A stretch of 64,000 nucleotides of DNA, taken from IMG/VR virus record IMGVR_UViG_3300033233_000015, positions 32,001 to 96,000 of that record. The stretch is one strand, 5' to 3'. A program made the translations under genes and the position numbers. Under the pieces are notes generated by a model. That model was not told where the DNA came from, did no database searches, and saw nothing but the letters and a program-made list of their open reading frames with translations. Position 1 is the first letter of the stretch; each line of letters begins with the position of its first letter. The DNA is from a virus. Shown in pieces: positions 7,254 to 41,163 of the stretch.

Positions 7254-7384
7254 GAGTCTCGGGGAGCGTCTTCCTTTCGTTCCTTTCGGAAGTCGCTACG
7301 AGCATCGACGCGCGGCCGATGCCCCGATGATCCGTGCACCTGTCGCCGTGGCGTGGCACGGCAATTTCGACTTCGGAGAGGGCG

Positions 7385-24903: not shown

Positions 24904-25932
24904 ATGCGGGGCATGTACGTGCGCGACGGCTTCGAGGACGTGGCCTTCAACGGAAGGCGAGTCACGAGTCTCGGATACGGTCTCGGGTTCGATCTCAGCG
25001 ACGTGGGCGACGCGGTTATGGATGTTGTTGACGCCGCCATCGATGCGGTCGCGTACTTTGGAAAGCACCTCGACTCGGTTGCCGAAATTGCGATCGTGGC
25101 CGGTCTCGTGATGGCGACTGGCGGCGGGGTCTTGCTCGCGAAGGGCGCGGTAGGTGCCGCAACACTCATCGCGGTGGGTGGTGCGCTGAGTTCTGCGGGG
25201 TACGCGATCGATCGGTTGGAAAAACAGTACGGACCGCAAATCAAGGCCGCGATCGATTGGGCTCAGACGGGAACTCACTCCGCGACCGACGCGCTCCGCA
25301 AAGCGATGCACGACATGCCTCCGAAGGAGCAGGCCGATCTCATCGCGTCGCAGGACTACCGTATCGCGATCAATCTGCTCAACGACTACGGGGCTCACCC
25401 CGAACGCACTGCGGGAATGCCTGAGCCGACGTTTCGCGATCCGGATGTTGATGTGGCTGCGATCTTGAAGAAGGTCAGCGCGAACGAGCTGACGGGACGC
25501 GAAGCGTACGAAGCGTTCGCGAACAGCGGTCGCATGGCCGAGAGCGCGATCGAGCGTGCGAAGTGGGAGAACAGCCTTCGCTATTCACCGATCGGGGCGC
25601 TCATCCTCGCTGGCATCGCCGAGAACAGCAAGTCGGCTGTCGTGATGCTCGGCACGGCTCGAGATTTGGAGAACGCGGCAGCCGCACATCCATCCAACGA
25701 GTCGGAGCTCCTCGGTCTCGCGAAGACGTTGAGGGAACGTGCGAAGCAGACGGCTCGCGCTGCCGCTGGAGCGGGGGTCGCGAGCGCGGGGGTCGCGAGC
25801 ACGAGCGGCAAGAAAAAACTCGTCGTCGGCACCGTCGTCGCGGGCGGCGCTGCGGCGGGCGGGCTCGCGTGGTACGCGAGCAAGCACGGCCTCACGATGA
25901 TGCAGGCGCTTCGTCGGATCTTCGGTCATTGA
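24904..25932 (+). CDS. membrane protein with GRxV..GLG leader
   Basis: AGGAG RBS; FNGRRVTSLGYGLG; internal and C-terminal TM segments. Confidence 0.7.
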   Translation: MRGMYVRDGFEDVAFNGRRVTSLGYGLGFDLSDVGDAVMDVVDAAIDAVAYFGKHLDSVAEIAIVAGLVMATGGGVLLAKGAVGAATLIAVGGALSSAGYAIDRLEKQYGPQIKAAIDWAQTGTHSATDALRKAMHDMPPKEQADLIASQDYRIAINLLNDYGAHPERTAGMPEPTFRDPDVDVAAILKKVSANELTGREAYEAFANSGRMAESAIERAKWENSLRYSPIGALILAGIAENSKSAVVMLGTARDLENAAAAHPSNESELLGLAKTLRERAKQTARAAAGAGVASAGVASTSGKKKLVVGTVVAGGAAAGGLAWYASKHGLTMMQALRRIFGH

Positions 25933-25957
25933 CGAGCGAGCGACTCACGCTTAGGCT
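25929..25957 (+). promoter_or_regulatory. sigma70-like promoter, possibly leaderless
   Basis: TTGACG-N17-TAGGCT, 6 nt before GTG 25964. Confidence 0.45.
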
Positions 25958-25963
25958 ACTTCC

Positions 25964-26152
25964 GTGATCCCGAAGCTCACCGAGGTTTTCCACTTCAAGG
26001 CCACTCCCGAGCAGGCTCGCGCGATCAAGAGGATGGCCAAAGCCCGACGCATGCATGTCGGAGCGTGGCTCCGATCGGTCGTCGTCGCTGCGTCTGCTCC
26101 TCTCTCAAGCAACGGGTCGATGAATCTCGACACGCCGAGGCTACCGAAATGA
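25964..26152 (+). CDS. ribbon-helix-helix regulator
   Basis: VFHFKATPEQARAIKRMAKARRMHVGAWLRSVV. Confidence 0.6.
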   Translation: MIPKLTEVFHFKATPEQARAIKRMAKARRMHVGAWLRSVVVAASAPLSSNGSMNLDTPRLPK

Positions 26153-26631
26153 GCTCGCCCCAGGATCAGATTCTCGGCTTCCAGCCGGAATCCAAGGTTT
26201 CGATCGACGCCCGGCATTGGGAGTCTCTCAAGCGCATCGTGTGGCGCATGAAGACGTCGTGGGGCTTCGTCGAGAGCGAGTGCCGCGACCTCATCGCTTC
26301 GTGCCAGCACGCTGAGGGATGTTTGGGAGCCGACGACATTCGAGAGCCGTGCCTGTCGTCGTGTCCCGACAGGCAGACCCGCCTCTCGGCGCTCGTCATC
26401 TACGCCAACGCGCGCGAGTTCATCTCCGTGAACGCGCCCAAGCCCACCTCGATCGAGGGCGGCGGATACATCCCGCCGACGCGTGAGTTCTTCGATCTCG
26501 TTCTGAGCGAGCTCGTCGTCGCGCACGCCGAGCTCGACGACATGAAGAAGTTGATTCAGGAATCGGGCGCGACTCTTCCGCCCACCGTCAGTCCGCCCGT
26601 CCTCCCCCCAAAATCGGAGCCTCAACCGTGA
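26149..26631 (+). CDS. hypothetical protein
   Basis: coupled start and stop. Confidence 0.6.
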   Translation: MSSPQDQILGFQPESKVSIDARHWESLKRIVWRMKTSWGFVESECRDLIASCQHAEGCLGADDIREPCLSSCPDRQTRLSALVIYANAREFISVNAPKPTSIEGGGYIPPTREFFDLVLSELVVAHAELDDMKKLIQESGATLPPTVSPPVLPPKSEPQP

Positions 26632-26984
26632 ACATCGAGCTCGATCCGCAAGCCAACATCATCATCGCCCGCCTCATCGACATGCAGCGCACCGAGAGCG
26701 GCATCATCATGCCCGACACGCAGATCAAGGGCGTCACCGTCTTCGCGCTCGTCGAGCGAATCGGTCCCGACGTCAAGCGATGCAAGCCCGGCGATGTCAT
26801 CCTTCCTCGAGCGGTGGAGCACTGCTGGCTTCGGGGTGGTACATTCCATCGCGCGCTCATTCAGGACGAGCACGTCGTCGCGATCGTCAAGAACGGCTTC
26901 AACCGCGAGCACATGAAGTTCGTGGACGAGCGCATCGCGGCGGGCGACGACGGCGGTGGTAAAGAAAAGAGGCTGGTCACGTGA
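26628..26984 (+). CDS. GroES-like co-chaperonin
   Basis: RTESGIIMPDT, VERIGPDV..CKPGDVIL, LIQDEHVVAIV. Confidence 0.75.
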   Translation: MNIELDPQANIIIARLIDMQRTESGIIMPDTQIKGVTVFALVERIGPDVKRCKPGDVILPRAVEHCWLRGGTFHRALIQDEHVVAIVKNGFNREHMKFVDERIAAGDDGGGKEKRLVT

Positions 26985-28123
26985 AACTCGAAGCGGTGTA
27001 CGAACGTCGCAGAGAAGTTCGCCGGCCACGCCGCGCAGCGTCGCCGTGCGGATGTGGATGCGCAGCGTCACCGCGAGGAGTCGTTCCGCCGCCAGCGCCG
27101 CGCGCGCGCGAGGTCCGACGAGAGGTTCGCGATTTCGGTTCGATGCTCGACGCGCTCGAGGCTGCGAAGGCTCAGGGCGCGACACATGCGCTGCAGAGCG
27201 GATACGCCGTCTACTTCCCGATCTCCGCTGCGGCGGGGTACGACCACTGCGCCATCTATCAGAGACTCGGCAAGTGGCACATCGAAGCGCCAGGCAAGAA
27301 GAGCAGAGGTCCGCTTCCCACGCTTGCGGTCCCGATCGGTGATCTGATCTTCTCTCTTCAAGGGCGCGGCGCGAGAGAGGCCGATCCGCCAGGCGGTCCA
27401 GTTCTGCGAGTCGGATCGACCATCGTTCTGCCCGCTGGACATCGCGTCGGTATGGGTCGTCTTCGCAAGGACACGACGGTTCGGATCGATCGAATCGAGA
27501 ACGACTCCGAGGGAGCCCCGATCTACGGGTTCTCTTGGATGGATGAGAGAGGCAAGGCCCGAAGCGGGTGGCTCTCGCAGAGCGAAGCGCTTCAATACGT
27601 TCGACGTGGCGGTTTCTCTCACGAGTCACCCTCGCGCGAGATCGAGTCGGAGTGCCGTCCGTACCTGAAGATCGAGCGCGACGAGAAGCGTTTCCGTGCG
27701 TGCCAAGCGATCGCCGATCGCATCGGGCCAATCGACTCGACCGAGAAGTCGTACGAGGTGCTTCGGCAGGCGGTTGGTCACGAACTCGCCGAGCGGTTCG
27801 GTGTGATGACGATGGACACGCACTTGAAGCTCCGCGACATCGCCGAGACCGGGGCAGGCGAGACGGACGCCGTGATGGCGCCGAAGGTGCCGACGCTTCA
27901 GGCCGCTCTCCTCTCGTCGCCGACGTACGCGATCATCTATCACGTGCATCCCGCCGCGAGCGAGAGGCCGAGCGATGCGGATGTCGAAGTGACCAAGGAC
28001 TTCGCGAAAGCGTTCGCGGAGGTCGGTGTGCCGCTACTCGATCACATCATCATCTCGACGGGATCGAAGAAGGGGCACTACTCGTTCGCCGAGTCGAAAC
28101 CGAAGACGCTTCAAGTGGAGTGA
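26981..28123 (+). CDS. multidomain protein with C-terminal RadC-like JAB domain
   Basis: E...HVHPAASERPSDADVEVT...LLDHIII. Confidence 0.85.
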   Translation: MKLEAVYERRREVRRPRRAASPCGCGCAASPRGVVPPPAPRAREVRREVRDFGSMLDALEAAKAQGATHALQSGYAVYFPISAAAGYDHCAIYQRLGKWHIEAPGKKSRGPLPTLAVPIGDLIFSLQGRGAREADPPGGPVLRVGSTIVLPAGHRVGMGRLRKDTTVRIDRIENDSEGAPIYGFSWMDERGKARSGWLSQSEALQYVRRGGFSHESPSREIESECRPYLKIERDEKRFRACQAIADRIGPIDSTEKSYEVLRQAVGHELAERFGVMTMDTHLKLRDIAETGAGETDAVMAPKVPTLQAALLSSPTYAIIYHVHPAASERPSDADVEVTKDFAKAFAEVGVPLLDHIIISTGSKKGHYSFAESKPKTLQVE

Positions 28124-28126
28124 TCG

Positions 28127-28573
28127 ATGTCGAACCAACAGCAGCAGCAGACCAAGACGCTCGAGATTCCGAAGGCCGAGTATCCGATCGTCAACAGGGT
28201 TATCACCGATCATCCGTTTCCGACGGAACCCGTACAGGGAGTGCCCGTCGATCCTCATCGCCCGGCAGCGCTGATCTGGAATCTAGGGTCACCGCATCCG
28301 ATCGTGAACAACCTCAAGATCGTGCGCATGTACGTGGTGCCCGGAATCAGTGCAGAGATTTACAGCGCGAGCGAGGACGGGAAAATGGGCGTGCGCAACG
28401 CGATCCCGTGGCCGCAAATTCGCGTCGTAGAAGAGGTGTGCGACGCCGAGTCGTTCGTCGCGGAGATTGTCGCGGCCGAGCGGGACGACGACGACGACGA
28501 CGATCCCGATCCCGAGCCTGCGCCCACTCCGCTCGTGGCTCTTCAACCAATGCCGAACGGTGGAGTTTCCTGA
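28127..28573 (+). CDS. hypothetical protein with acidic tail
   Basis: GGAG RBS, typical codon usage. Confidence 0.65.
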   Translation: MSNQQQQQTKTLEIPKAEYPIVNRVITDHPFPTEPVQGVPVDPHRPAALIWNLGSPHPIVNNLKIVRMYVVPGISAEIYSASEDGKMGVRNAIPWPQIRVVEEVCDAESFVAEIVAAERDDDDDDDPDPEPAPTPLVALQPMPNGGVS

Positions 28574-28911
28574 TGCCTCCCACGACCGCGACGCTCGTCT
28601 ATAGAGTGACGCCGACGAACGTCCTTCCGACCGCGACGATGCAGGCGAAGATGGCGGCAGTTCCGCTCTACGCAAGCGCGCTGACCGACCCGGTGCTCAA
28701 GACGCTGTTCGACTGCACGGTGGCATCCGATGCGACCGCGCCCGCAGGACCGAACATCGATCGCACCATCGTGCTCAACTTGGGCGCGGGGTTCTTCTCT
28801 CTCTTCCCGACCGCTGCCGATTGGGCAACGGCGTTCAACGATCTCTTCGGCAGAACGCTCGCTCTTCTTCTTCCGGCGCAGGTGAAGAGCCTTCCGGTGG
28901 TGTTCGCATGA
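28573..28911 (+). CDS. hypothetical protein
   Basis: TGATG coupling. Confidence 0.6.
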   Translation: MPPTTATLVYRVTPTNVLPTATMQAKMAAVPLYASALTDPVLKTLFDCTVASDATAPAGPNIDRTIVLNLGAGFFSLFPTAADWATAFNDLFGRTLALLLPAQVKSLPVVFA

Positions 28912-30344
28912 GCGGTGACGGCAGACGTGACGGCAGACGACACCGCGGCGTGGCCGCTCCTCCCGAGCACGAAATCGTCGACGAACTCTCCGAAGAGATC
29001 GAGGACAACGGAGAGACGCGCGCGGTCGCAAACGAGGAGACCGTCAAGCGCGAAGGTGCGCTCAACGCGGAAGCGGTGCAAAGCAACCGCCGGCGGAAGT
29101 CCATCGAGAACAAGAAGAGGGGTGGTGCCGGGACAGTTCCCTGGAACGAGTCTCGAGCGCCGCTTCTCTACGACGACATCATCGCGCTCTACCCGCCGAA
29201 CACGTTGATGATCTACGTCGAGCGTCTCTCGGGCACGCTCGCGAGCTGGTACTTGTACGGACAGCCGAAGAGCGGTCACGAGCTCTATCAGGCGATCCTC
29301 AAGCAGTGTCACGGGCGAAAAGAGGAGACCGAGTACCGCGTCGTCTTCCGCGATGCGCAGCGGAAGTTCGAACGAGGCATCGGTCGGCTCACGCTTCCGT
29401 CGACGCTCGACGACGCTACGCTCCCCGTGCAGCCTCAGGGAATGGGGATGCCGAACGGCGTGCCGCCCGCGAACTACGGGCAGCAAAACGGCTACGGTCA
29501 GCCGAACGGATATCCGCCGCAACAGCCGCCGCAGAACAACGGCTACCCGCAACAGCAGCAGCCTCCGCCGCAGAACTATCCGCAGCAAGCACCGCAGTTC
29601 GCGCAGCAACCGATGCAGCCGATGCAGCCGCAGTACGCGGGTCACTCACCGCAGGAGACGCAGGTGCTCCTCGACATGCAGCGGCAGATCGCCGAGATGA
29701 GCGGGCGAGTGACCGCGTACCTGACGCAGCAACCGATGCAGACGCCGCCTCAGCAAGATCAGCATCGACCGATCTACGATCGGCCGTCGCCGCGCTACAA
29801 CGGAAGCGTCGTACCGCCCGCTCCTCAGCCTCCGCCGCAACAGGCCATGCAGCCTCCGCCGGGGATGTACCACGTCCCCGGATTCGGCTTCGTCCCCACC
29901 GCGAAGCTCATGGAAGCGATGGGAGTCGTCGGGCCTCAGCAGCAGCAGGCTCCAGCAGCTCCTCCGCAGCCCCCGAGGAACGCTGCCGACGAGTTCCGAA
30001 GCGCGATCGGTCTCATGACCACGGTCGCCGATGCCGCGCGCACCGTGCAGTCGATTTTCCCTAGCGCAGCAAGCGCGCCCGCGGCGCCGGCCGCTAGAGA
30101 AGACGACGATCTGCCGATGAAGACGATCAAGTACGGCGACTTCAACACGGTCGTGAACAAGGAAGACGGCAGCCTGCGGATTCCAGACACGATCGCCGCG
30201 AACGGCGAGAAGATCCTCGGTTGGATCGAGAAGCAGCGCAAAGACATCCAAGCCCAACGCCAGCAACCTCAGTCGATACCCGAGCAACCGCCTCAGAACG
30301 GCATGATGCCGATGCCGCAGTATCCCGGAGAACAGCAGCGATGA
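28908..30344 (+). CDS. Gln/Pro-rich low-complexity protein
   Basis: globular N-terminus followed by Q/P/N/Y/M-rich disordered tracts. Confidence 0.75.
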   Translation: MSGDGRRDGRRHRGVAAPPEHEIVDELSEEIEDNGETRAVANEETVKREGALNAEAVQSNRRRKSIENKKRGGAGTVPWNESRAPLLYDDIIALYPPNTLMIYVERLSGTLASWYLYGQPKSGHELYQAILKQCHGRKEETEYRVVFRDAQRKFERGIGRLTLPSTLDDATLPVQPQGMGMPNGVPPANYGQQNGYGQPNGYPPQQPPQNNGYPQQQQPPPQNYPQQAPQFAQQPMQPMQPQYAGHSPQETQVLLDMQRQIAEMSGRVTAYLTQQPMQTPPQQDQHRPIYDRPSPRYNGSVVPPAPQPPPQQAMQPPPGMYHVPGFGFVPTAKLMEAMGVVGPQQQQAPAAPPQPPRNAADEFRSAIGLMTTVADAARTVQSIFPSAASAPAAPAAREDDDLPMKTIKYGDFNTVVNKEDGSLRIPDTIAANGEKILGWIEKQRKDIQAQRQQPQSIPEQPPQNGMMPMPQYPGEQQR

Positions 30345-30796
30345 AGGCGAACGTCACGATCGAATTTACCGACGAGGAGTTGAAGGACTACGGGTGGGGT
30401 CTTCTCGTCCGCGGGATCCAGTCTCTCGGCAAGATCAAGGTGTTCGACGATCCGCAGTCGGTGAGCATGATCCAAGGCATGATCAACCAGCTCATCAACG
30501 GTGCGAACGCCGCGAGATCGGGTACGCGCGTCCCGCCCGCGTGGGGTCCTCAGCCACCGATCGGATACGGACCGATGCCCACGCAACAAGCGCGCGTCGT
30601 TCCGATTCAACCGCAGATCGTTCACGACAAGTGCTTCGTGATCGAGGAGACGCGTGCGAACGAAGCAGGAATCGGGTGTCACGTCTGCGCGTCGTTCAAC
30701 GCTGCGGGACGAACCGTGTGTCGTCACTGCGGTCACGAGCTCTGCTGCGATATCCCCGGTCCCGTGATCACTCCGCCACCGAAAACACAAATGTGA
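30341..30796 (+). CDS. hypothetical protein with C-terminal zinc ribbon
   Basis: CHVCASFN..CRHCG. Confidence 0.65.
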   Translation: MKANVTIEFTDEELKDYGWGLLVRGIQSLGKIKVFDDPQSVSMIQGMINQLINGANAARSGTRVPPAWGPQPPIGYGPMPTQQARVVPIQPQIVHDKCFVIEETRANEAGIGCHVCASFNAAGRTVCRHCGHELCCDIPGPVITPPPKTQM

Positions 30797-30827
30797 CGAC
30801 CGCGCGCGCATCGCGTACGATGCGCTC

Positions 30828-31385
30828 ATGCGGGTCTACAACGTGCAGCCCGGCGACAGCCCGGCGTCGATCGCAATTTCGTACGCTGGATGCCCAAAAT
30901 GTTCGATCGATCTCGTCTCCGTGAATCCGCACAAGCCGACCGTTCGCTATCCGAACGGCTACGTGACGTTCAAGGATCTGCGCGCGGGTGAGCGGCTCTG
31001 GCTCCCCGACAAGTGGTTCAGCGGCGCGCTCGATGATTTGCCGAGCGAATATTTCGCATCGCTGCCGAGCGCCGACGGATTTCTGGCCGATCCACGGCCG
31101 AACCTGCCGCCGCCGCAAAAGGGGCCGTCCGGTCCTCCGGACTATCCGAAACCTCCTCCTCTGATCATCTCGCCCGTGGCACCGTATCGGCCGCCGCCCT
31201 TGGCGCCGGTGCCCGATCCGTCCAAGCAGAAGCCGCCGAACGCTGGTGGCGGAGGATCGGCGGGCGGCGGAACCCCAGGAGAGACGACGCCGTCGGAGTC
31301 GGGCATGAGCACCGGAGCGAAGGTCGCCATCGGATTCGCAGTCGCCGCAGCAGGAGGGTTCGCACTATGGACTTTGGCGAAGTAA
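30828..31385 (+). CDS. LysM-domain, Pro-rich, tail-anchored membrane protein
   Basis: YNVQPGDSPASIA...LRAGERLWLP; C-terminal TM. Confidence 0.8.
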   Translation: MRVYNVQPGDSPASIAISYAGCPKCSIDLVSVNPHKPTVRYPNGYVTFKDLRAGERLWLPDKWFSGALDDLPSEYFASLPSADGFLADPRPNLPPPQKGPSGPPDYPKPPPLIISPVAPYRPPPLAPVPDPSKQKPPNAGGGGSAGGGTPGETTPSESGMSTGAKVAIGFAVAAAGGFALWTLAK

Positions 31386-31585
31386 GCATCCACGGTCGTT
31401 CGGTCGCCGAGCTCGGAATGCTCGGTGCTGACGTCAACGTCACGAACTGCCCCGCCTGCTCGTGCAGCGGGTATTTTTGGGCGGGCATGTTCCTCGGAGC
31501 GGGCACGCTCTACATCACGACCGCAGTGCTCGGCGCTGCTGCGATCTTCGGATCGACGGTCGCGTACAAGCGGATGAATCCGTGA
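31367..31585 (+). CDS. small membrane protein with GRSV..LG leader
   Basis: MDFGEVSIHGRSVAELGMLG, then TM. Confidence 0.6.
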   Translation: MDFGEVSIHGRSVAELGMLGADVNVTNCPACSCSGYFWAGMFLGAGTLYITTAVLGAAAIFGSTVAYKRMNP

Positions 31586-31589
31586 GCTC

Positions 31590-32234
31590 GTGATGGACTT
31601 CGGGAGCGAACTCTCTTTCGGTGGTCGTTCCGTCGAAGGATTCGGGCTCGGCACGTTTCTTCGCCAGCCGTCCGTCGAGGATCTTCGCAACCTCATCAAC
31701 GCCAAAGACTACGAGCTGAATCAAATCTACAAGCACTACATGGCCTTCTGGCAGATGTGGGAGACCGTAGATTTGCCGGCCAAGCTCGATTGGGCCAACG
31801 ACTGGAACGCGCTTCTCGCAAGATACAAGAAGGCAAAGGAGACCGCGCAGTGGGCGTTCGACAAGGCGGCGGGGCAGCCGTGGCCGGACTCGGTCATCCT
31901 GGCTCCCGACGAATGGAACACCGTGCTTCGAGCGCTGAGAAAAAATTGGGACGGCAAGACGGGGGGTACGCTGGAGAAGGGTGATGAGGCCGATCTCGAA
32001 TTTCGCCTTTCGGCTGCGAGCCACAAGAGCAGCGACTTCTCGCACGAGCCGCAACCGACGGGCGACGTCGATCTCGAGATTTTCAAAGCCGCCGACAAGG
32101 CGACCAAGGGGATCGAAACCGTCGCGGGTAAAATCGCCAACTACGTCCCGATCGGACTCGCCATCGGGGCAGGCATCTTGGTGCTCGTAGCGGGGGCCTA
32201 CGTCATCGCTCTCTTGCCCAAGTCGAGATCATGA
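31590..32234 (+). CDS. tail-anchored membrane protein with GGRSVEGFGLG leader
   Basis: helical body, C-terminal TM. Confidence 0.7.
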   Translation: MMDFGSELSFGGRSVEGFGLGTFLRQPSVEDLRNLINAKDYELNQIYKHYMAFWQMWETVDLPAKLDWANDWNALLARYKKAKETAQWAFDKAAGQPWPDSVILAPDEWNTVLRALRKNWDGKTGGTLEKGDEADLEFRLSAASHKSSDFSHEPQPTGDVDLEIFKAADKATKGIETVAGKIANYVPIGLAIGAGILVLVAGAYVIALLPKSRS

Positions 32235-32578
32235 AGTCCAGCACGAAGACCCTCATCGCGGCCGGCGCGGGCGCGGCGATCGTCGGATTGATCGCGGTGA
32301 TCGCTTCTCCGAAGTCGAACGCCAGCTCGGGACAGGTTCAAGTCCTGCACGGTCACCGATACCGACTCTCGCACGTGTACCCATCGGGAACGCAGCCTCC
32401 GAGCGTCGCGGTGATGCAGCAGAAGATCGATGTTCTGATGCCGAACACGTGGAGAGTTGTCTCCTCGTCGTTCGACATAGACAGATCGGTCGGGACGTTC
32501 ATCGCCGACATGATCGGTCAGACGCACTACGAAATGACGGTCGGCGGATCGATCGAAGACATGGGGCCGACGCCATGA
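32231..32578 (+). CDS. N-terminally anchored membrane protein
   Basis: LIAAGAGAAIVGLIAVIA. Confidence 0.65.
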   Translation: MKSSTKTLIAAGAGAAIVGLIAVIASPKSNASSGQVQVLHGHRYRLSHVYPSGTQPPSVAVMQQKIDVLMPNTWRVVSSSFDIDRSVGTFIADMIGQTHYEMTVGGSIEDMGPTP

Positions 32579-33279
32579 CCATTTTTTTCGGAGGTAGACC
32601 CGTACGCGGCTTCGGTCTCGAGGATTCGGGACCGACACCGATCCCTCTCTGCGGTTTTCCGAACACGCCCGACTGCGACAGGTTCACGCTCAAGACGGGC
32701 CACCGCTACGTCGCTGGAGGCATCTTCCTCTATCGCTACAAGCCCGACTTCCCGATGGCGGAGGAAGAGAAGCAGGATTTCATCTCGAGCTTCGGCGGCG
32801 CGATGATGGTCGATTGGGTGAAAGCGCTTGGGCCGCCGAACGATCTCGGTGCAGCAGCGCCTCAGGGATTTCAGTGGGCTCTTTCGGTGATCTTCCAGGG
32901 CTACGCCAAGCGCGATCAGATCCTCATCAACGGACAGACGGAGACGTGGCTCGTTGCTGCGCAGGTGCCCGACAACGTCACGCCTCCGCCCGAACCTCCT
33001 GCGCCGACACCGCCGAGCGTCACGGAGCACCGAGGCGTGAAGATCATCTACCAGCTGGTGCCTGGTGGCGGATGCGTCGCTGCGTTCGTTACGCAGCAGG
33101 GGAGCTTCGACGTGCAAGACGTCGACTGCGACGGTGCCATCGCGAAGGCGAAGGCGAAACTCGACTCGATGATGGGCGGCGGCGCGAGCCCCTCTTCCTC
33201 GAGCCACACCGGCATCATCGTCGGCATCGCGGCGGGCGTCGTCCTCGCGGGAGCTGCCCTGATCGCAACATCGAGATGA
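32575..33279 (+). CDS. tail-anchored membrane protein with GGRPVRGFGL leader
   Basis: C-terminal GIIVGIAAGVVLAGAALIA. Confidence 0.7.
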   Translation: MTIFFGGRPVRGFGLEDSGPTPIPLCGFPNTPDCDRFTLKTGHRYVAGGIFLYRYKPDFPMAEEEKQDFISSFGGAMMVDWVKALGPPNDLGAAAPQGFQWALSVIFQGYAKRDQILINGQTETWLVAAQVPDNVTPPPEPPAPTPPSVTEHRGVKIIYQLVPGGGCVAAFVTQQGSFDVQDVDCDGAIAKAKAKLDSMMGGGASPSSSSHTGIIVGIAAGVVLAGAALIATSR

Positions 33280-33953
33280 AGCGTGCATGGATCGTCGCCG
33301 GCGGAGCGGGAATCGCCATCGCGACGGTAGCGATCGTGAGGTCTCGACACGCGCGCGCGCAGTCGAGACCAGACTTCAATCGCTCCGTGCTTGCTCGAGC
33401 CGAAAGCGATCTCGGTGTCATCGAGACGTCACCCAACAGCGGGCCACGCGTGGACGAGATGCTGAGATCGGTCGGGATCAACGTACCCGCCAACTGGTGC
33501 GCGGCGGCCGTGTCGACATGGGTTCGGGAAGCAGCGCGCGAGCTCGGCGTTGGCGTGCCCATCGCGGGGTCTGCGAGCGTGCTTTCGATCGTTCAAGAGA
33601 TGCGCGATCCGAACAACCCAAAGGTCGGATGGATCGAAACAACAGACCTGCGCGCGCATCCTGAGCGCGTGCGGCCAGGGATGATCGTGGCGTGGACGCG
33701 CGGTCTGCCTGGCAGCGGCTTGGGACACATCGGTATCGTCGAGAGCAGCGACAGCCGAGGCGCGTTCGTACACATCGACGGCAACGCGGGCGCTAACGCT
33801 GATCGCGTCGCCAAAGGCACAAGCGATCTCTCGAGCGCGTCGCTGATCGGGATGGGGTTCTTCCGCGACATCGCTGTCGGACTCGGCGACTACAACTTCG
33901 CGCTCGGCTACTACAACGATCCGCCGGGGGCTCTCCTTTTTCCGCTATCCTGA
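33276..33953 (+). CDS. CHAP/NlpC-type peptidoglycan amidase with N-terminal anchor
   Basis: NWCAAAVS, GHIGIV, HIDGN. Confidence 0.8.
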   Translation: MKRAWIVAGGAGIAIATVAIVRSRHARAQSRPDFNRSVLARAESDLGVIETSPNSGPRVDEMLRSVGINVPANWCAAAVSTWVREAARELGVGVPIAGSASVLSIVQEMRDPNNPKVGWIETTDLRAHPERVRPGMIVAWTRGLPGSGLGHIGIVESSDSRGAFVHIDGNAGANADRVAKGTSDLSSASLIGMGFFRDIAVGLGDYNFALGYYNDPPGALLFPLS

Positions 33954-33958
33954 AGATC

Positions 33959-34618
33959 ATGATCGAGAAGCCCGTACCTGGCGTCCTCGCGAGACCTCAC
34001 CCCGGCGGCAAACGCGGAGCGATGATCTCGCTCGACGAGACCGCGAAAGGCGCGTGGCGCGATCGGATGTCGCCGCGGCTTCGCGCGTGGGCTACGCAGC
34101 AGCTCGACAAGTGTGGCCGTCCCACGGGGAAACGCGCACGCGTGCAGTGCCTCCTCGACGCCTTCCGCAAGAAGGTGCCCTATCTGGCCGATCCGAAGTG
34201 GGGTGAGTTCATCGCGAGCTCCGACCAGCTTCTCTGCGTGGACGAAGACAAGAACCTCTGCTTCATCGGCGCCGACTGCGAAGAGCACGCTCGAGCGATG
34301 GCGGCCCTCTGTCTCTGCATCGGGATTGACGCGATGATCGTGGGCCAGTCGTCACGAGATCCCGCCGACGTCCCCACGCACGTCTACTTCGCGTTCAAAG
34401 ACGATCTCGATTCGTGGGTCCGAGGCGACTCGACGACGACGTATCCGGTGGGCAGGGTCGCTCCGTACCTTCGCGAGTGGTGGGTCGATCCGTCCGAGGG
34501 TGTCGCTGAGGCGGGGCTCGGCGACATCGTCGTGATGGGCGCCACGGATGGTTTGCAGGATGCACCTAAAAATGGTGCGGTCTACACGGGTCGATACGCG
34601 GGGCTGTTCTCGAAATGA
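33959..34618 (+). CDS. transglutaminase-like Cys-His-Asp enzyme
   Basis: GADCEEHA, THVYF, WVRGDST. Confidence 0.7.
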   Translation: MIEKPVPGVLARPHPGGKRGAMISLDETAKGAWRDRMSPRLRAWATQQLDKCGRPTGKRARVQCLLDAFRKKVPYLADPKWGEFIASSDQLLCVDEDKNLCFIGADCEEHARAMAALCLCIGIDAMIVGQSSRDPADVPTHVYFAFKDDLDSWVRGDSTTTYPVGRVAPYLREWWVDPSEGVAEAGLGDIVVMGATDGLQDAPKNGAVYTGRYAGLFSK

Positions 34619-35049
34619 GCCGTTCGCGGCGAAGAGTGAAAATTCTCGGTGACGACGTCGCTCTGTCGATTGTCGATCGTGAGCCGTTGGTGTTCCCTAA
34701 GGATCACGTACTCATCTTCGATCCGAGTGGGCGATCGATCGGGAAATGCTGCCTCGTCATCGGCCCCGCGCGCTTCACCAACGATCCGATTTCTAATTTT
34801 TCCAAATTCGATCGCGGTTGGTACGGCGACGACTACGAACGTCGATTGGCTTTCGTTGACGTTCCCGAAGATCACTGGCACTCTTTCGATCGCGTGGACG
34901 AGATCACCTACTTCCGATACGGAGAGCTCGAGGGAGATTTCACGCATCCCTTCCGCGAACCGCAGCAGCTCTTGAAGAGCAGGAAGTGGCACATGCTCGT
35001 CCTCTCGTCCGATTGCAGAATCACTCGTCGCGGGATCGAGGAACCGTGA
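34615..35049 (+). CDS. hypothetical protein
   Basis: coupled start. Confidence 0.6.
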   Translation: MSRSRRRVKILGDDVALSIVDREPLVFPKDHVLIFDPSGRSIGKCCLVIGPARFTNDPISNFSKFDRGWYGDDYERRLAFVDVPEDHWHSFDRVDEITYFRYGELEGDFTHPFREPQQLLKSRKWHMLVLSSDCRITRRGIEEP

Positions 35050-36468
35050 ATGGCGTCCTACGCGGATTGGCTCTCAGAGATGTCTCGACGGCGACCTCGC
35101 CGTCGTCGCGCTCGACGATCCGCCGCGCCCGTCGCCTCTTCCCGATCCTCTACATCCCGAACGTCGCCGAAGCGTCCTGCGAAAAAAAAGAAGACCAAGC
35201 AAACCGCCGGCTCCGGCGGACGTAAAACGAAACAAGGAGTGACCATGGCCCGTCGCCGTCGCCGAAAGCACGCCAAGAGCCCCGTCGCAGAGACCCGTCG
35301 TCGTCGCCGGCGAGCCGCAGCCCCGAAACGTCGTCGCCGTCGGGCGCGAGAAGCGGCGGTGGCGCAAGCTCCGCGTCGGCGTCGTCGCGCGCGTCGTCGC
35401 GCGGCACGGTCGTGGTTCGGCAACGCCCCCGGACATCGTCGAGCCGCGAAGAAGGGCTGGCGTAAGAAACGCAGCAGCGGTCGTCGGCGTCGAAGCCGCG
35501 AGGTGAGCGAGGCTCCGCGCCGCCGCCGCCCGAGCCGTCGTCGGGGTCGTCACTACCGAGAGGCCGCGCACGAGGCGCGTCGCGGCGGGTACTCCCGACG
35601 TCGGCGCCACGCGCGCAACAACCCGGCGATGAACGGAGGCGAGCTCGCCATCGCGTTCATCGCGGGCGGTCTCGGCTTCACGCTCGCCGACTTCGCCGAT
35701 CGGTACTTCGCCACGTACGATCCGTCGGCGACGGGCGAACTGCCGAAGGACAAGTTCACGGGCGGCAACGGCACGATGGCGAACACGCTCAACATCGCCG
35801 CGCCGCCAGGCTTCCTTCGAATCGGCGTCGGCGTCGCGCTGACGGCTCTTCCGGGGGTCGGCGCGTACCTCGTCAAGAACTCGATGGCGAAGGCCGCGCT
35901 CCACGGCATGATGATCGGCGCGGGCATCAAGCTCTTCTCGACGCTCTTCAATGCGTTCGTGATGGGCAACCTGCTCAAGCCGGGACCGCAGGACGATCCG
36001 AAGAAGTCGCTCGGAGCGCGCCTCTACCCGGCCGAGATCACCGCGGCGCAGAACATGTCGAACAGCCCCGCGACGATGGCCTCGCCGTTCAACCCCGGCC
36101 TCGCGGCTCGTCCTCAGCAACGCGACGTCGGACCCTTCGCACTCGCGCAGGATCCGAGCGCGTTCGCTCCCGCACCGAGCGCGCCGCCCGTGAACGTCGC
36201 GCCGAGCCCTCCGCCCGTGAACGTGGACAGACCGCCATCGAACGGCGGCGGTCCGCCCGTGAACGTGGACAGACCGCCATCGAACGGCGGCGGTCCGCCC
36301 GTCGTCATGAGCCCGCCCATGGGTCCGCCGCCCTCGAGCGGACCGCCCGCGCGATCGGGCGGATCCTGCCCCGCCTGCAAAGGCGAGAGCGGGGCGTGCG
36401 GCTGCCTCGGATCGCAACCTCAAGCGCAGACGAACTACGCCTACCTCGGCGTCATCAACGAATCGTGA
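35050..36468 (+). CDS. Arg-rich (protamine-like) membrane protein, putative DNA-condensing core protein; alternative start 35245
   Basis: poly-Arg N-terminus, three hydrophobic segments, Pro-rich tail; AAGGAG RBS before ATG 35245. Confidence 0.7.
   Translation: MASYADWLSEMSRRRPRRRRARRSAAPVASSRSSTSRTSPKRPAKKKKTKQTAGSGGRKTKQGVTMARRRRRKHAKSPVAETRRRRRRAAAPKRRRRRAREAAVAQAPRRRRRARRRAARSWFGNAPGHRRAAKKGWRKKRSSGRRRRSREVSEAPRRRRPSRRRGRHYREAAHEARRGGYSRRRRHARNNPAMNGGELAIAFIAGGLGFTLADFADRYFATYDPSATGELPKDKFTGGNGTMANTLNIAAPPGFLRIGVGVALTALPGVGAYLVKNSMAKAALHGMMIGAGIKLFSTLFNAFVMGNLLKPGPQDDPKKSLGARLYPAEITAAQNMSNSPATMASPFNPGLAARPQQRDVGPFALAQDPSAFAPAPSAPPVNVAPSPPPVNVDRPPSNGGGPPVNVDRPPSNGGGPPVVMSPPMGPPPSSGPPARSGGSCPACKGESGACGCLGSQPQAQTNYAYLGVINES
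36211..36302 (+). repeat. perfect 42-nt tandem duplication (PPVNVDRPPSNGGG x2)
   Basis: 36211-36252 is identical to 36253-36294. Confidence 0.95.
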
Positions 36469-36524
36469 TGGAGAGAGCCTGCGGCTGACCGACTGAAACG
36501 GCAGGCTCGGAAAGAAAGACGACC

Positions 36525-37775
36525 ATGGAAGCTCAAGTGAAGAAGTCGATGACGAAAGCTCGGTTCGGCCAGGACCGCGATCGGGTGAAGCGCGTTCCCT
36601 TCGGTCTCGGCGACGCGCCAAGCTCCGACGCGCTCAACAAGACGCTCCGTTGCTCCTTCGGCAACGTGCCCGTCATCGAGGAGGTCGTTTGGACGATTCC
36701 TCTCCCGCTCTCCGAAGCGGAAGCGCAGAGCACGTTCGGCGACATCATCAACGTGCTCACCTCGCAGGCGAACGTGCCGGGTGTCGCGTCGATCGACTCG
36801 ACGTTCCTGCTCAACGGCATCCTGCAGACGGACCTCTACACGCAGGGCGTCGGCGTGCACGTCTTCTGCGAGCCGATGCAGCTCGCGACGATCGGCAACG
36901 CTTGGACGTCGCCGCCCACGGCCGGCGCCGTTCCGCCGCCGTCCCCCGACGTCTTCACGCTGAACGATGTCGCCGGCGGCGCGCTCGGTCTCGCGCAAGG
37001 CACCACGATGGTGCCCGCCGCCTTCGATTGGGGCGGCGAGGTGTGGCGCGCGGGCTGGAACTTCATCAACGCGTACCAGTTCCAGTGGAAGACGAGCCAG
37101 CGCGAGCTCGTCTTGAACGAGCTGGCGGCCGACGTCTCGTACTTCGGCAGCTTCGCGGACGCGGAGGCGGCGGGCACCAGCGAGTTCCCGATCGCGGAGC
37201 TCGTCGCGCGCACGAACGCCGTCTACCGCTCGAAGGCGTCGGGGTTCACCTTCCTCCCCGTGAACTTCCGCCGCGTCGGAAGCGTCACGGTGGCGGCGGC
37301 CAACGTCGGCATCTTCCACCCGACGCGCGACTTCGACCTCGCGCCCGTCACCTGGGGCGGTCTCCGCTGGCAGGGGTACGGCTGCAAGGGTCAGATGTAC
37401 CGGATGATCGAGAACCCGTGCTTCCTCGAGCGCGCGATTCCGATCGGCATGCAGTTCATCGTGCAGGATCCGGTGCACCAGGCCGCGATGCTCGAAGCGC
37501 TCACGATGGACAACTCGCTGCTCGGGACGAACATCAGCCCCGACACGAACATCAGCTGCGCGAACACGACGACGGGCGCGAACGTCATGCTCGAGCAGAC
37601 GCTCGACTCGCCGCCCGTGAACACGCCGCAGCAGGTGACGCTCTGCCGTCAGGTCTTCAAGGGCGGCATCCTCAAGATCGGCATCAAGCTCAAGGGGTGG
37701 GAGTTCCCCGCTCCGTGGCGTCTCTGGTGCCAGCAGAACGCGCCGCAGCTCGTCTCCTGCCCCGCGCAGAGCTGA
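36525..37775 (+). CDS. candidate major capsid / major structural protein
   Basis: 416 aa, beta-rich, strongly biased codons, follows the Arg-rich protein and is followed by a strong hairpin; no HK97 motifs recognised. Confidence 0.45.
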   Translation: MEAQVKKSMTKARFGQDRDRVKRVPFGLGDAPSSDALNKTLRCSFGNVPVIEEVVWTIPLPLSEAEAQSTFGDIINVLTSQANVPGVASIDSTFLLNGILQTDLYTQGVGVHVFCEPMQLATIGNAWTSPPTAGAVPPPSPDVFTLNDVAGGALGLAQGTTMVPAAFDWGGEVWRAGWNFINAYQFQWKTSQRELVLNELAADVSYFGSFADAEAAGTSEFPIAELVARTNAVYRSKASGFTFLPVNFRRVGSVTVAAANVGIFHPTRDFDLAPVTWGGLRWQGYGCKGQMYRMIENPCFLERAIPIGMQFIVQDPVHQAAMLEALTMDNSLLGTNISPDTNISCANTTTGANVMLEQTLDSPPVNTPQQVTLCRQVFKGGILKIGIKLKGWEFPAPWRLWCQQNAPQLVSCPAQS

Positions 37776-37796
37776 GCCAAGCAGCGTGACTAGACC

Positions 37797-37838
37797 GCGA
37801 CGGGCGGCGCGGATTTCTGCGCCGCCCGTTGCCGTTTC
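37797..37838 (+). terminator. GC-rich hairpin (terminator/attenuator or mRNA stabiliser)
   Basis: ACGGGCGGCGC (37800-37810) / GCGCCGCCCGT (37819-37829), short T tract. Confidence 0.65.
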
Positions 37839-37849
37839 AGGAGAGCCCG

Positions 37850-38536
37850 ATGCTGCCGCGTGACCTCCAGATAAAGAATCTCGCTTGGATCTCCCCCAAG
37901 ATCGCCTACGGTCTCGTGGCGCAGGTTCCCCGTGTGCCGTTCGTCGGTCCCATCACGACGAACCCCGGCGTTCCGTCGCCCGTCGTACCGATTCAGTTCA
38001 CCGCGAACTGGCTCGCTCCGCCCGCGCTGCCTCCGGGCAATCCGCCGAACAACATCGGCATCAACCCGATCATCCAAGGCACGCTTCAGAACAACGTGAC
38101 GCAGGACACGCTGATCGAGCGCATCGTGTACTCGCTCTGGCAACCGAACGCGTTCTCGACGCCGCCGTCTCCGTTCCAGACGCTATACCTGTCGCAGCTC
38201 AAGAGCTCCACGGGCGTCGATGTCCTGCTCGATGTCTACGGAAGCCCGAAGTACCGCGTGTGCGACTTCTTGCCGCTCGAGAACCTCGCTGACGTGCTCG
38301 CCGTCACGTGGCCCAACGGATGGCCGCTGCGCAAGCAGGAGAACGTCAAAGTGCAGGCCGTGCTCACCAGACCGCAGCCCGGAACGGTCGAAGCCCCCGT
38401 CGGCATCCCGTACTTCGTGAACATGGCGCTCGTCGGATGGCAGTTCGTCGGGAAGGAGATCGACGACATGTCCGACGACGAGGCGCGTCGGCGTCTCAAA
38501 GCGATGGGGATCGAAGTCCCTGAGGTGCCGCGATGA
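37850..38536 (+). CDS. putative structural protein, paralogue A
   Basis: AGGAG RBS; aligns end to end with 38533..39156. Confidence 0.7.
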   Translation: MLPRDLQIKNLAWISPKIAYGLVAQVPRVPFVGPITTNPGVPSPVVPIQFTANWLAPPALPPGNPPNNIGINPIIQGTLQNNVTQDTLIERIVYSLWQPNAFSTPPSPFQTLYLSQLKSSTGVDVLLDVYGSPKYRVCDFLPLENLADVLAVTWPNGWPLRKQENVKVQAVLTRPQPGTVEAPVGIPYFVNMALVGWQFVGKEIDDMSDDEARRRLKAMGIEVPEVPR

Positions 38537-39156
38537 TCGACCGCGACTACAACGTGAAGAACTTGGCGCTCTACGCGCCGCGCGTCGCGTGGGCGATGAT
38601 CGCGGGCATTCCGCGCGTCGCGTTCGCGGTGGACGTGCCGATTCAGTTCTCGTCGGCGACCGTCAACGCTCCCCCCGTCGTCGGGAGCTTTCAGAACTCG
38701 CTCACGCAGGACACCGTCATCGAACGTGTCTCGTTCTCGCTCTTCCAGCAGAACACGTTTCCGGGCTCTCCCTTCCAGACGCTCTACTTCGCGATGGCGA
38801 AGGCGATCAGTGGCGTCGGCGTGCAGATGAGCGTCTACGGGGGGCCGAAGTACAACGTGAACGACACGTTCACGGCGCTAGAGAACATGGCCGACGTGCT
38901 CGCGATCACGTGGCCGAGCGGATGGCCGCTCTACAAGGGCAGCAACGTCAAGGTGACGGCGGCGCTCCTCCAGACGCCGTTCTCGACGCCGTACGACGTG
39001 AACCTCACGTTCCTTGGCTGGCAGTTTCTCGACGCCGAGCTCGACGCGATGAGCGACTCGGAAGCTCGTCGTCGTTTGCGGGCGCTCGGACTCGAGTCAC
39101 CCGATCTCGCATCGCTCATCGGATCAGGGGGCGCGACGGCGCCACACAAGGAGTGA
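38533..39156 (+). CDS. putative structural protein, paralogue B
   Basis: shares KNLA, TQDT.IER, EN.ADVLA.TWP.GWPL, GWQF, MSD.EARRRL. Confidence 0.7.
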   Translation: MIDRDYNVKNLALYAPRVAWAMIAGIPRVAFAVDVPIQFSSATVNAPPVVGSFQNSLTQDTVIERVSFSLFQQNTFPGSPFQTLYFAMAKAISGVGVQMSVYGGPKYNVNDTFTALENMADVLAITWPSGWPLYKGSNVKVTAALLQTPFSTPYDVNLTFLGWQFLDAELDAMSDSEARRRLRALGLESPDLASLIGSGGATAPHKE

Positions 39157-39159
39157 GTC

Positions 39160-39642
39160 ATGGCATTTCGAATCGGTAGAAAGCACGCGCAGCACACGTA
39201 CCCGGAGCCGAACAGGGGCAGCCAGGCGTTGTCGCTGGCACATGGGTGGGCGGACAACCCGACCGACGTAGCGATCGGGGTGGGAAATACCACCGTCGCG
39301 AGCGTGCCCGTAACCCCCAAAGTCACCGGCAAGTTTCGTGTGACGGCGACGTTCACGCCGACGAACACGGACACGGGCGTGCCGCACAACATCGTGCCGC
39401 TTCTGCGCCACGCGGGAGCACCGCCCGTCACCGACTACACGCCGGGGACGCCTACGCGCCTCGAAGTGGCGGCCGCGGGCAACGAGGCCATCGCGACGGG
39501 CGCGTTCACGTTCGAGTACACCGTCGCGTTTCCGGTAGGTCAACCGGTCACGCTTCTCCTCACGCTCTCGGACGCGGCCTCGCCTGGGGTGACGGTCTTC
39601 GCGCACTCCGCGCAGCTCCTCGTCGAAGAAGTGGGGAACTGA
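39160..39642 (+). CDS. beta-rich putative virion protein
   Basis: AAGGAG RBS; IGRKHAQHTYP N-terminal motif. Confidence 0.65.
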   Translation: MAFRIGRKHAQHTYPEPNRGSQALSLAHGWADNPTDVAIGVGNTTVASVPVTPKVTGKFRVTATFTPTNTDTGVPHNIVPLLRHAGAPPVTDYTPGTPTRLEVAAAGNEAIATGAFTFEYTVAFPVGQPVTLLLTLSDAASPGVTVFAHSAQLLVEEVGN

Positions 39643-39655
39643 GGTCCACGCTCGC

Positions 39656-40534
39656 ATGAACAACGTCATTCGCCTTCAAGACAAGCGCGGCGGTGTGGGG
39701 ACGAACCTCCCCGGCGCGGCGGTGTGTCGAGGGCGATACGAAATCGTGTCCGCGTCGCTCGATCCCGATCTCGCGTTCATCGGAAGCGATCCGTACAACA
39801 CGAGCGACTTCACGGGCGTCATCGTTCCTGCGGTGCCGTCGTCCTTTCTTGGCACCGGTCAGCGCTATCTCTTCATGCTCGCGCGCGCGCAGTTCAGTTC
39901 GGGACAAGAGGGGGTTCATCTAGTTGGTGTCCGCCTCTACGCTGATCTCGTCGCGCGCGTTCCGCAAGAGGACGCTCCCACGCTCGTCTTTCACAAGGAG
40001 ATCACGCACCCGATGTTCCATCCACCCGATGGCAACATCTCGTTCCATGTGATGGTCCTCGACAAGACGTGGCGCGACAGAAGGAACGCGTTCAACGCAG
40101 ACACGAGGACGTTCCAAGACAGCTTCTCTCCATCGCTGCTCTTTCAGACGCCCGAAGCTGCGGGCTACACGCCGCCGAACGGCGGACGAGCCTGGGGAAC
40201 TCCGCTCGACGCCTCACTCGGCAACATCCACGAGCTCCGATGGCCGTGGCGAGACAGCAAGATCGAGCACACCCTGCGCGTGCCCATCCCCATCCCGAGC
40301 GACATCGCCATCTTCGCGTCGGTCAGGCAGAACGATCCCGCTATGAACCCGAGCGCGGCCGGGTTGTCCGCGCAGCAGTTCGCGGCGCTCGATCCTGAGG
40401 AGCAGTTCCTCACTTCGTTCTTTACGGTCGCGCAGTACGGGCGCATCTCCGCATCGCTCGTCTTCGAGGGGGATTCGTTTTTGTACGGCAGCGAGGGATG
40501 CAAGTCCGAGGACTCGCGGGAGAAGTGCCGATGA
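39656..40534 (+). CDS. hypothetical (putative virion) protein
   Basis: GAGG RBS, long ORF within the operon. Confidence 0.65.
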   Translation: MNNVIRLQDKRGGVGTNLPGAAVCRGRYEIVSASLDPDLAFIGSDPYNTSDFTGVIVPAVPSSFLGTGQRYLFMLARAQFSSGQEGVHLVGVRLYADLVARVPQEDAPTLVFHKEITHPMFHPPDGNISFHVMVLDKTWRDRRNAFNADTRTFQDSFSPSLLFQTPEAAGYTPPNGGRAWGTPLDASLGNIHELRWPWRDSKIEHTLRVPIPIPSDIAIFASVRQNDPAMNPSAAGLSAQQFAALDPEEQFLTSFFTVAQYGRISASLVFEGDSFLYGSEGCKSEDSREKCR

Positions 40535-41163
40535 GGTGCCCGTACGTGCAGAACATGGTGACGGGGCAGGTCGAGAGCGAACCTGCTGGACCCAATGATG
40601 CGGGCATCGAGCGTTCGCTCCGATGTTTCGCCGAGTACATCAACAGCATGGGGCTCGGAGACGGAGGAAACATGATTTCGTACGGTGGACGCCCCGTAGC
40701 GGGCTTCGGTGTGCTCGACAACCTCGGCCTCTCGGGTGCCGACATCTACAACGCTCTGTCCAGCGATCAGCGGACGTGGCTCGCCTCGGCGATGCAGACG
40801 TTCGAAGGAGCTCGCAGGGACGCTGGCGCGTCGGCGTGCCCGGAGTGGCCGCAGACGTTTCAGACGGTCGCGGACTTCCAGGCAGCCGTCGCGTGCACGC
40901 AGGCGTGGATCAACGCCGGCAACCCCGGCCTTCTTCGCACCGACGGCGTCATGGACGAATCCACGCTCTGCGCGATCCAGTTCGAGGCGTACAAGATGCC
41001 CCCCTACGCGCAGAACAGATTCCCCGATCCGTCGGGCAAGTTCTGCAAGTCGATGACGACGACGGAGAAGAAGTCGAACACCGTCTACTACGTCGCTGGC
41101 GGCGTCGCGGCGGCGCTGGCCGTCGGCGCGGCGATCGTCTACTCGAGAAAGCGAGCTGCGTGA
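40531..41163 (+). CDS. tail-anchored protein with GGRPVAGFG motif and PG-binding-like motif; possible internal start 40672
   Basis: GGAGG before ATG 40672; LRTDGVMDESTL; C-terminal TM + RKR. Confidence 0.65.
   Translation: MRCPYVQNMVTGQVESEPAGPNDAGIERSLRCFAEYINSMGLGDGGNMISYGGRPVAGFGVLDNLGLSGADIYNALSSDQRTWLASAMQTFEGARRDAGASACPEWPQTFQTVADFQAAVACTQAWINAGNPGLLRTDGVMDESTLCAIQFEAYKMPPYAQNRFPDPSGKFCKSMTTTEKKSNTVYYVAGGVAAALAVGAAIVYSRKRAA

Follow-up and report, generated by a model that had tools for sequence, protein, structure and literature searches.

A conserved peptide on unrelated membrane proteins of an uncultured virus family, and its possible role as a docking tag

How do lipid-containing prokaryotic viruses choose, among the proteins inserted in the host membrane, those that will enter the particle? 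This general question is raised by a stretch of 64,000 nucleotides (hereafter the window), bases 32001-96000 of a single virus contig of 110,081 bp and 63% G+C (IMG/VR record IMGVR_UViG_3300033233_000015). Five genes of the window encode membrane proteins with unrelated bodies that nevertheless carry the same short peptide, close to the N-terminus in four of them. We propose, with a probability of about 0.45, that this peptide is a linear tag by which membrane proteins of the virion dock or are incorporated, and which a transglutaminase-fold enzyme possibly trims.

A common peptide on five membrane proteins

The initial annotation of the window had noticed a shared leader on five otherwise unrelated membrane proteins. 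We recovered all five where it had placed them; their bodies form five separate blastp families, and each ends in a hydrophobic, transmembrane (TM) helix with a short tail of net positive charge behind it. Scores in bits refer to the hidden Markov model (HMM) of the motif.

24904..25932, plus strand: protein A, 342 aa; tag at 24934-24999, then a hydrophobic region leading into a helical body; C-terminal TM helix with basic tail.
31367..31585, plus strand: protein B, 72 aa; tag at 31376-31441, one TM helix; 15.3 bits.
31593..32234, plus strand: protein C, 213 aa; tag at 31605-31670, C-terminal TM helix; 24.1 bits.
32575..33279, plus strand: protein D, 234 aa; tag at 32575-32640, directly from the start codon, C-terminal TM helix; 26.0 bits.
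40498..41163, plus strand: protein E, 221 aa from 40498 (210 aa from 40531); internal motif at 40669-40734, then a helical body; TM helix with basic tail.

Shine-Dalgarno-like sequences precede the starts of A, B and E, the start of D overlaps the upstream stop codon as ATGA, and C begins a few bases past the stop of B. The gene calls of the collection agree with the starts of A at 24904 (P0007) and of D at 32575 (P0006).

In its strict form, G-R-x-V-x-x-[FL]-G, the motif has exactly five matches in the six-frame translation of the whole contig, which start in the window at 24952 (A), 31394 (B), 31623 (C), 32593 (D) and 40687 (E). All are on the plus strand, 5 to 13 residues past an ATG, in open reading frames (ORFs) that end in a membrane helix. 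As a null model, 200 first-order Markov genomes were used, in which the strict pattern occurred anywhere 0.93 times on average (maximum 4). When an N-terminal context was asked for, defined as at most 14 residues past a Met in a frame that stays open for 55 codons or more, the mean fell to 0.04 (maximum 2), against the five observed. The motif is thus strongly enriched at N-termini, and the lack of enrichment by which the initial annotation would have been refuted did not show.

A profile of 22 columns, built from regular-expression seeds taken from the data, was searched on every stop-to-stop frame from 30 loci and six complete genomes. Matches of at least 10 bits numbered 76, whereas reversed sequences gave none, their best score being 8.0 bits. 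The consensus of the tag, E-x-[IV]-S-[FLY]-G-G-R-P-V-x-G-F-[GA]-[LV]-G, spans 16 residues and usually stands right behind the initiator Met: leaving aside E and the A-like families, a Met was found between -1 and 7 residues of motif position 1 in 35 of 39 carriers. The glycine at position 7 is invariant (45/45), followed by F13 (37/45), G12 (34/45) and G6 (31/45); position 6 is otherwise often N, A, D or H. Within the tag, codon entropy is higher at third positions (1.52) than at positions 1 and 2 (1.09), and all Gly and Arg codons are used. Since synonymous sites vary in this way, selection acts on the peptide and not on an RNA or DNA element, and an explanation at either of these levels is ruled out. 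The literature consulted, Pfam and PHROGs yielded neither a description of the motif nor a family model.

The leader had also been said to be none of the classical signals, and here we agree for each class. A Sec signal does not fit a Gly-rich motif followed by polar or Pro-rich linkers, with the first hydrophobic window at residue 35 or beyond in all five proteins. For Tat, the arginine at position 8 is mostly single (R-R occurs in some copies only), and there is neither box nor h-region. No cysteine is conserved across the 22 columns of the profile, as a lipoprotein signal would have it. In place of the helix of type IV pilin and class III signals, G-F-G-[LV]-G is followed by linkers rich in A, P, G and D. 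In comparison with double-glycine leaders, the register is off by one (Ile at -5 and Glu at -7 from the second Gly), the carriers are membrane proteins of 70-560 aa, and the genome has no match to the C39 peptidase family PF03412.

The layout of the carriers is largely common: behind the tag, and in most cases after a linker in which Pro, Ala, Gly and Ser abound, comes a body that varies and has 40-500 residues; a TM helix near the C-terminus follows, and then a tail with a net charge of +2 to +10. Families 4, 7, 10 and 16 have instead one or two helices soon after the tag. Not every anchored protein of the module is tagged, as two LysM proteins, a CHAP protein and others lack the peptide.

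Protein E departs from the picture of an N-terminal leader. Its gene is called from 40531 in the collection (P0001, 210 aa), and the 50-60 residues upstream of the motif are conserved in P0002 and P0004. Orthologues of E occur in 28 of 30 related loci, and no other tagged protein belongs to the core of the family. In them the motif is internal, 62-74 residues behind a conserved N-domain that starts with M-T-P-A-Q-A, and no Met precedes the motif. In the window, the ATG at 40672 does have a GGAGG box; it may at best be a second, internal start giving a short form of E. The claim of five N-terminal leaders therefore holds for A to D, and fails for E, where the motif follows an N-domain of 60-75 residues; judging from the orthologous sequences, E is not truly tagged at its N-terminus and its motif is ancestrally internal.

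The AlphaFold2 (AF2) model of an E orthologue has a body with a predicted local distance difference test (pLDDT) score of 75-94, whereas N-domain and motif stay below 50 and have no secondary structure. The motif is thus disordered and not packed on its own body, which suggests a linear motif that needs a partner. A Foldseek search with the E model gave no significant match. Two suggestions about E were abandoned: a PG_binding-like body, as the window copy has no Pfam match, and a ubiquitin-like N-domain (70-80 residues, ending in G-G), as AF2 shows no confident fold there. In an orthologue at L026:13880-15082, and also in L011, a PG_binding_1 domain (E 5.8e-13 in L026) is inserted between N-domain and motif.

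Spread and exchange of tagged bodies

The relatives of the window are best described from the protein that we take as candidate major capsid protein:

36525..37775, plus strand: candidate major capsid protein, 416 aa; G+C content at third codon positions (GC3) 0.92, the highest in the genome.

It has 30 relatives in IMG/VR contigs, with 44-69% identity. Several of these contigs, of 109-120 kb, are rated complete, and one has direct terminal repeats. The complete genomes of the close clade have 4 to 7 tagged ORFs each; there are six in G010, at least two in G008, and one on a contig labeled Polyangiaceae whose capsid candidate is 54% identical. In all, the non-redundant carriers (n = 65) represent at least 17 body families, and no tagged gene is more than about 20 kb away from the candidate capsid genes.

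The tag was found in relatives with a capsid candidate at least 54% identical. Two more distant relatives, G006 (complete, 79.6 kb) and G007 (38% G+C), with capsid candidates 44-45% identical, have no tag, and a brief look for some other tag in G007 revealed none. Outside the clade, the exact core nonapeptide has 28 matches in IMG/VR, which is about the level estimated for chance. None of them has a Met nearby, nor does any stretch that holds one of them encode a homologue of the structural module. On this sequence evidence, the motif is lineage-specific.

Among homologues of the five proteins, the tag is kept, so that the second refutation named in the initial annotation, a lack of conservation, failed as well: C body homologues in G003, G005 and L021 (family 5) also begin with it, as does a homologue of A with 66% identity (P0008), and it recurs on many unrelated membrane proteins of related viruses. 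A further A homologue, P0009, comes from a 2.3-kb contig and is without tag. Relatives in the A family have two tandem copies of the motif, 21 residues apart. For protein B, no homologue was found in related loci, and protein D is an orphan, without homologue among 5.8 billion proteins.

Two observations bear on how these bodies are exchanged. First, P0004, which comes from another sample, shares with E its N-domain, motif and C-terminal anchor almost residue for residue, while its body is unrelated and beta-rich; the comparison of the two sequences gives a clear case of module exchange between constant ends. Second, B, C and D sit in a 2.6-kb block (31367-33953) together with a CHAP gene and an untagged gene (32231-32578) that encodes a small, N-terminally anchored protein. 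This block lies between two genes of wider distribution:

30828..31385, plus strand: untagged LysM-like protein with a C-terminal TM helix; conserved in 23 loci.
33959..34618, plus strand: transglutaminase-fold Cys-His-Asp enzyme; PF01841, 29.4 bits (cut-off 23), E 1.1e-6.

In all 30 relatives the block is missing and the LysM gene abuts the transglutaminase-fold gene, so that it is probably a lineage-specific insertion of accessory genes. Taken together, the body swap between P0004 and E and the absence of the B, C, D block from relatives form a pattern of exchangeable cargo on a constant tag. The tag probably marks a hot spot of gene exchange, with constant tag and anchor and a variable body, which would reflect adaptation to host envelopes.

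A separate observation concerns the DNA upstream of several adjacent tagged genes (L047/G003, L056/G004, L065/G005), where a conserved box with CGTACG precedes the ATG by some 10-20 bases. It may serve these genes as a common late promoter or translation signal.

The surrounding genome

The contig is rated 100% complete by CheckV. It encodes a Prim-Pol, helicases (one with an intein), a methylase, a PD-(D/E)XK nuclease and an integrase. The helicase in question is UvrD-like (L002:3590-5902, minus strand; genome 21590-23902) and is split by an intein with an HNH endonuclease (Pfam Intein_splicing, HNH_3). With one Pfam family searched for each function, the contig had no match to Terminase_6N, to the HK97-type Phage_capsid (PF05065) or to Phage_portal (PF04860). 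The block of genes around the candidate capsid genes, the five tagged proteins and the capsid candidates likewise lacked matches in Pfam and PHROGs. A reasonable but unproven frame for these data is a virus that lacks a tail and has a jelly-roll capsid as well as an internal membrane, and the family would be one of uncultured soil viruses of about 110 kb, apparently tailless. Relatives of the structural module were also seen on contigs (L115 and L114) binned into metagenome-assembled genomes of Polyangiaceae and Candidatus Binatia, which gives a hint at host range, no proof.

Besides the genes already listed, four of the surrounding structural region matter for the argument:

26981..28123, plus strand: RadC-like JAB (JAMM) metalloprotease-fold protein; PF04002, E 6.7e-21.
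37829..39156, plus strand: two paralogous small beta-rich proteins of 235 and 207 aa, candidate second capsid or penton subunits; GC3 0.84 and 0.88.
41163-42314: sister of the LysM protein, with LysM, Big_3_5 and a C-terminal TM helix.

The candidate major capsid protein gave a poor AF2 model (mean pLDDT 52). Neither Foldseek nor tblastn against 50,697 phage records returned a match. In VIA, the poor model reached Z scores of 5.6 with HCIV-1 and SPV1, 5.3 with P23-77 VP16 and 4.8 with PRD1 P3, among many unrelated beta-sandwiches, and atlas feature matches to jelly-roll capsids scored at most 0.88. The two small paralogues are 53% identical to each other, and both match one ORF per relative, the relatives having a single copy.

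The N-terminal arm of the capsid candidate (about 36525-36620; about 9950-10130 in L004-L031) is conserved and looks like the tag in stretched form and in the same register, with S-I-x-G-[RK] close to its start, then [FYW]-G and finally R-V-P-F-G-L-G-x-x-P-G. Against the tag HMM, the arms score 2-8 bits over columns 13-20 only, and most exceed the 95th percentile of shuffled arms; with hhalign the likeness is not significant (P 0.07, probability 0.8%). The resemblance is weak, and we treat it as a lead, not as evidence. If real, it would leave two explanations: mimicry of the capsid arm by the tag, or trimming of the two by a single protease.

In the transglutaminase-fold enzyme, C107, H141 and D157 are invariant in 18 orthologues, and the enzyme is present in 25 of 30 loci, tag-less relatives included. 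It had no match to PF06035 (E up to 1, whole genome), its profile had no real match among PDB sequences, and proteases of the C48, C39 and S77 (PF03420) types had no match in the genome. From its sequence, it is a candidate for a trimming protease or a wall-active enzyme of the structural block. Two of its variants were seen in passing. In L007, L013, L020 and L030 (about 6200-7900), the gene matches in a single piece over the first 109 residues, within a much longer open frame that may reflect an intein or other insertion. In G007 (L072-L075; 23797, minus strand), the transglutaminase-fold domain opens a 506-aa protein that ends in a membrane helix, the enzyme itself being anchored. The JAB protein has the full H-x-H-x7-S-x-x-D motif, is conserved in 18 loci including the tag-less L032, and is a second candidate, by sequence, for cleavage after Gly-Gly. 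Just upstream of it, a GroES-like protein guessed at 26628-26984 was dropped, as it is without Pfam support.

Possible functions and known counterparts

The initial annotation had gone further and read the leader as a virus-specific sorting, docking or cleavage tag that defines a dedicated targeting system. Lineage specificity, N-terminal enrichment and selection at the protein level bear out a virus-specific tag; they establish neither which of these functions applies nor a dedicated system.

In the scenario that we favor, the tagged proteins would first insert into a patch of host membrane destined to become the lipid layer of the virion. The disordered tag would then fold onto some conserved part of the capsid or of the assembly lattice, and in this manner a variable set of accessory membrane proteins, of which several bind the wall, would be picked for the particle. 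Trimming of the tag by the transglutaminase-fold Cys-His-Asp enzyme, which is conserved, may come later. Such docking is favored by a terminal peptide that stays constant while its cargo is diverse and exchangeable, by the flexible linker between the two, and by the location of the genes in the structural block. In addition, the motif tolerates 60-180 residues upstream and occurs in tandem copies in A-like proteins, which speaks more for a binding epitope than for a scissile bond alone.

Several points weigh against docking. The capsid assignment is weak, given a pLDDT of 52 and fold matches with Z about 5, and the internal membrane of the virion is something that we infer. By the positive-inside rule, the positively charged tails would place the N-terminal parts outside the cytoplasm, which is at odds with simple tail-anchoring and a tag that faces a cytoplasmic capsid. 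The invariant Gly, the frequent Gly-Gly and the two protease-fold genes would suit a cleavage site equally well. Finally, G006 and G007 keep the capsid genes without the tag, so that the docking site, if there is one, is not universal.

Alternatively, the motif could be mainly a maturation cleavage site, cut either behind the invariant Gly in G-G or at the G-[LV]-G end by the transglutaminase-fold enzyme or the JAB metalloprotease. A short propeptide would then be removed, and in E the whole N-domain. The glycine counts (45/45 at position 7, 31/45 at position 6) agree with this, as does the location of the E motif exactly between two domains. The invariant triad belongs to an enzyme inside the structural block, the JAMM motif of the JAB protein is complete, and an F-G-L-G-x-x-P-G in the capsid arm similar to the tag would be expected if one protease cut both capsid and cargo. 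There is a precedent in LapG, a transglutaminase-like Cys protease that cuts the N-terminus of LapA (PMC3032545). However, conservation over 16 residues extends to both sides of any candidate bond, beyond the needs of known Gly-Gly proteases, and position 6 is often N, A, D or H. Moreover, both enzymes are present in the motif-less G006 and G007, the enzyme does not match PF06035, the genome has no C48, C39 or S77 protease, and the transglutaminase fold also includes enzymes that are not proteases. We regard cleavage, the strongest rival of docking, as an unlikely main function. The two activities would be compatible on our analysis, as they are in T4 and vaccinia.

A more specific proposal builds on the resemblance of tag and capsid arm. 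The tag would copy the N-arm of the capsid protein, occupy the same groove under the capsomers and so load exchangeable, wall-attacking membrane proteins, and one transglutaminase-fold protease would cut both arm and tags at G-[LV]-G. These bacterial viruses would thereby have a dedicated system that sorts and trims proteins for their lipid layer, a parallel among prokaryotic viruses to the A17/D13/I7 scheme of poxviruses and to the targeting sequence of T4, here for membrane cargo. We find this quite improbable.

It is also doubtful, to a similar degree or slightly more, that the tags bind each other, their hairpins building one hetero-oligomeric membrane complex, for example at a vertex or for genome delivery. 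The fairly constant number of 4-7 tagged proteins per genome, the tandem double tags of A-like proteins and the disorder of the tag alone would agree with such a complex, and the Gly-rich, alternating hydrophobic pattern would be suited to beta-strand pairing. Yet the set of tagged bodies changes freely among close relatives, which is odd for a fixed complex.

Export was considered as well: the tag might be the signal of a novel insertion route that brings N-terminal domains across the host inner membrane and wall-binding bodies into the periplasm. The strongly positive tails past the C-terminal helix favor an N-out topology, some bodies or extensions bind peptidoglycan (PG_binding_1 in L026, above), and neighbors of the same architecture carry LysM. 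However, the untagged LysM proteins share this architecture and do without the tag, the motif of E is internal, behind 60-180 residues, and no translocase candidate was found. Passage of large N-terminal domains in the absence of a signal peptide is not known. All this makes export very unlikely.

Lastly, we tend to exclude that the motif has no common function. In that case it would be a portable 5' gene cassette (promoter or ribosome-binding site with the first codons) that recombination has spread, or else what is left of a common ancestry. B and C are indeed adjacent with identical first four residues, and the tandem tagged genes of G003-G005 share the upstream CGTACG box. Yet the residues are kept while synonymous sites vary; they are kept among relatives with 54-69% identical capsid candidates and unrelated bodies, and also internally in E.

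The docking tag, our preferred scenario, can be compared with several known systems. In phage T4, the protease of the head both takes off the capsid targeting sequence, of about 10 aa, and trims the major capsid protein. The internal proteins of T-even phages are diverse, and their sole common feature is this sequence, which directs them into the assembling particle (PMC3012670). Similarly, the same N-terminal element is found here on at least 17 body families, whose place in the virion we deduce from gene position. In contrast, the sequences are different, and the T4 cargo is soluble and enters the core of an HK97-type prohead, whereas the carriers described here are anchored in the membrane. 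Nor do we find here the counterparts of T4 maturation, in which an S77 protease cleaves at [LI]-x-E in an HK97-type prohead: PF03420, PF05065 and PF04860 have no match.

In vaccinia virus, I7-dependent cleavage of the N-terminus of A17 correlates with removal of the D13 jelly-roll scaffold, and I7 sites in core proteins read A-G-x (PMC4213562). The scheme that we propose is alike in that a membrane protein would be tied through its N-terminus to a lattice, of jelly-roll type in vaccinia, with a candidate viral Cys protease at hand. It differs in that vaccinia, a eukaryotic virus, uses one membrane protein and a C48-type protease, whereas here there is a tagged family, no C48-type match, and docking and cleavage that are presumed.

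In HCIV-1 and HHIV-2, VP10 and VP13, small proteins with a C-terminal TM helix, lie between membrane and capsid and position the jelly-roll capsomers; no common N-terminal motif of the anchored proteins is reported there (PMC6414509). The C-terminal anchors are a likeness to these sphaerolipovirus-type particles, with the reservation that our capsid candidate has only weak fold matches to them (Z about 5). The genomes of HCIV-1 and HHIV-2 are about four times smaller.

As for trimming, LapG is a transglutaminase-fold Cys-His-Asp enzyme that removes the N-terminal part of a surface protein (PMC3032545). The viral enzyme matches PF01841 only, and not PF06035, the family of LapG/BTLCP (Peptidase_C93). 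The LapG site is Ala-Ala, not Gly-Gly. Short terminal peptides also load encapsulins and microcompartments, where they are attached to unrelated cargo by flexible linkers and bind the shell interior. That cargo consists of soluble enzymes and involves no membrane, and both shells and sequences differ from those described here.

A terminal targeting peptide on virion cargo is thus already known, and a version for the membrane-anchored proteins of a lipid-containing prokaryotic virus is not: no shared incorporation signal for such proteins was found in the literature consulted, in Pfam or in PHROGs. If our reading is correct, the tag predicts the genes for virion membrane proteins across an uncultured virus family and, should it be a portable label, could serve to load foreign membrane proteins into such particles.

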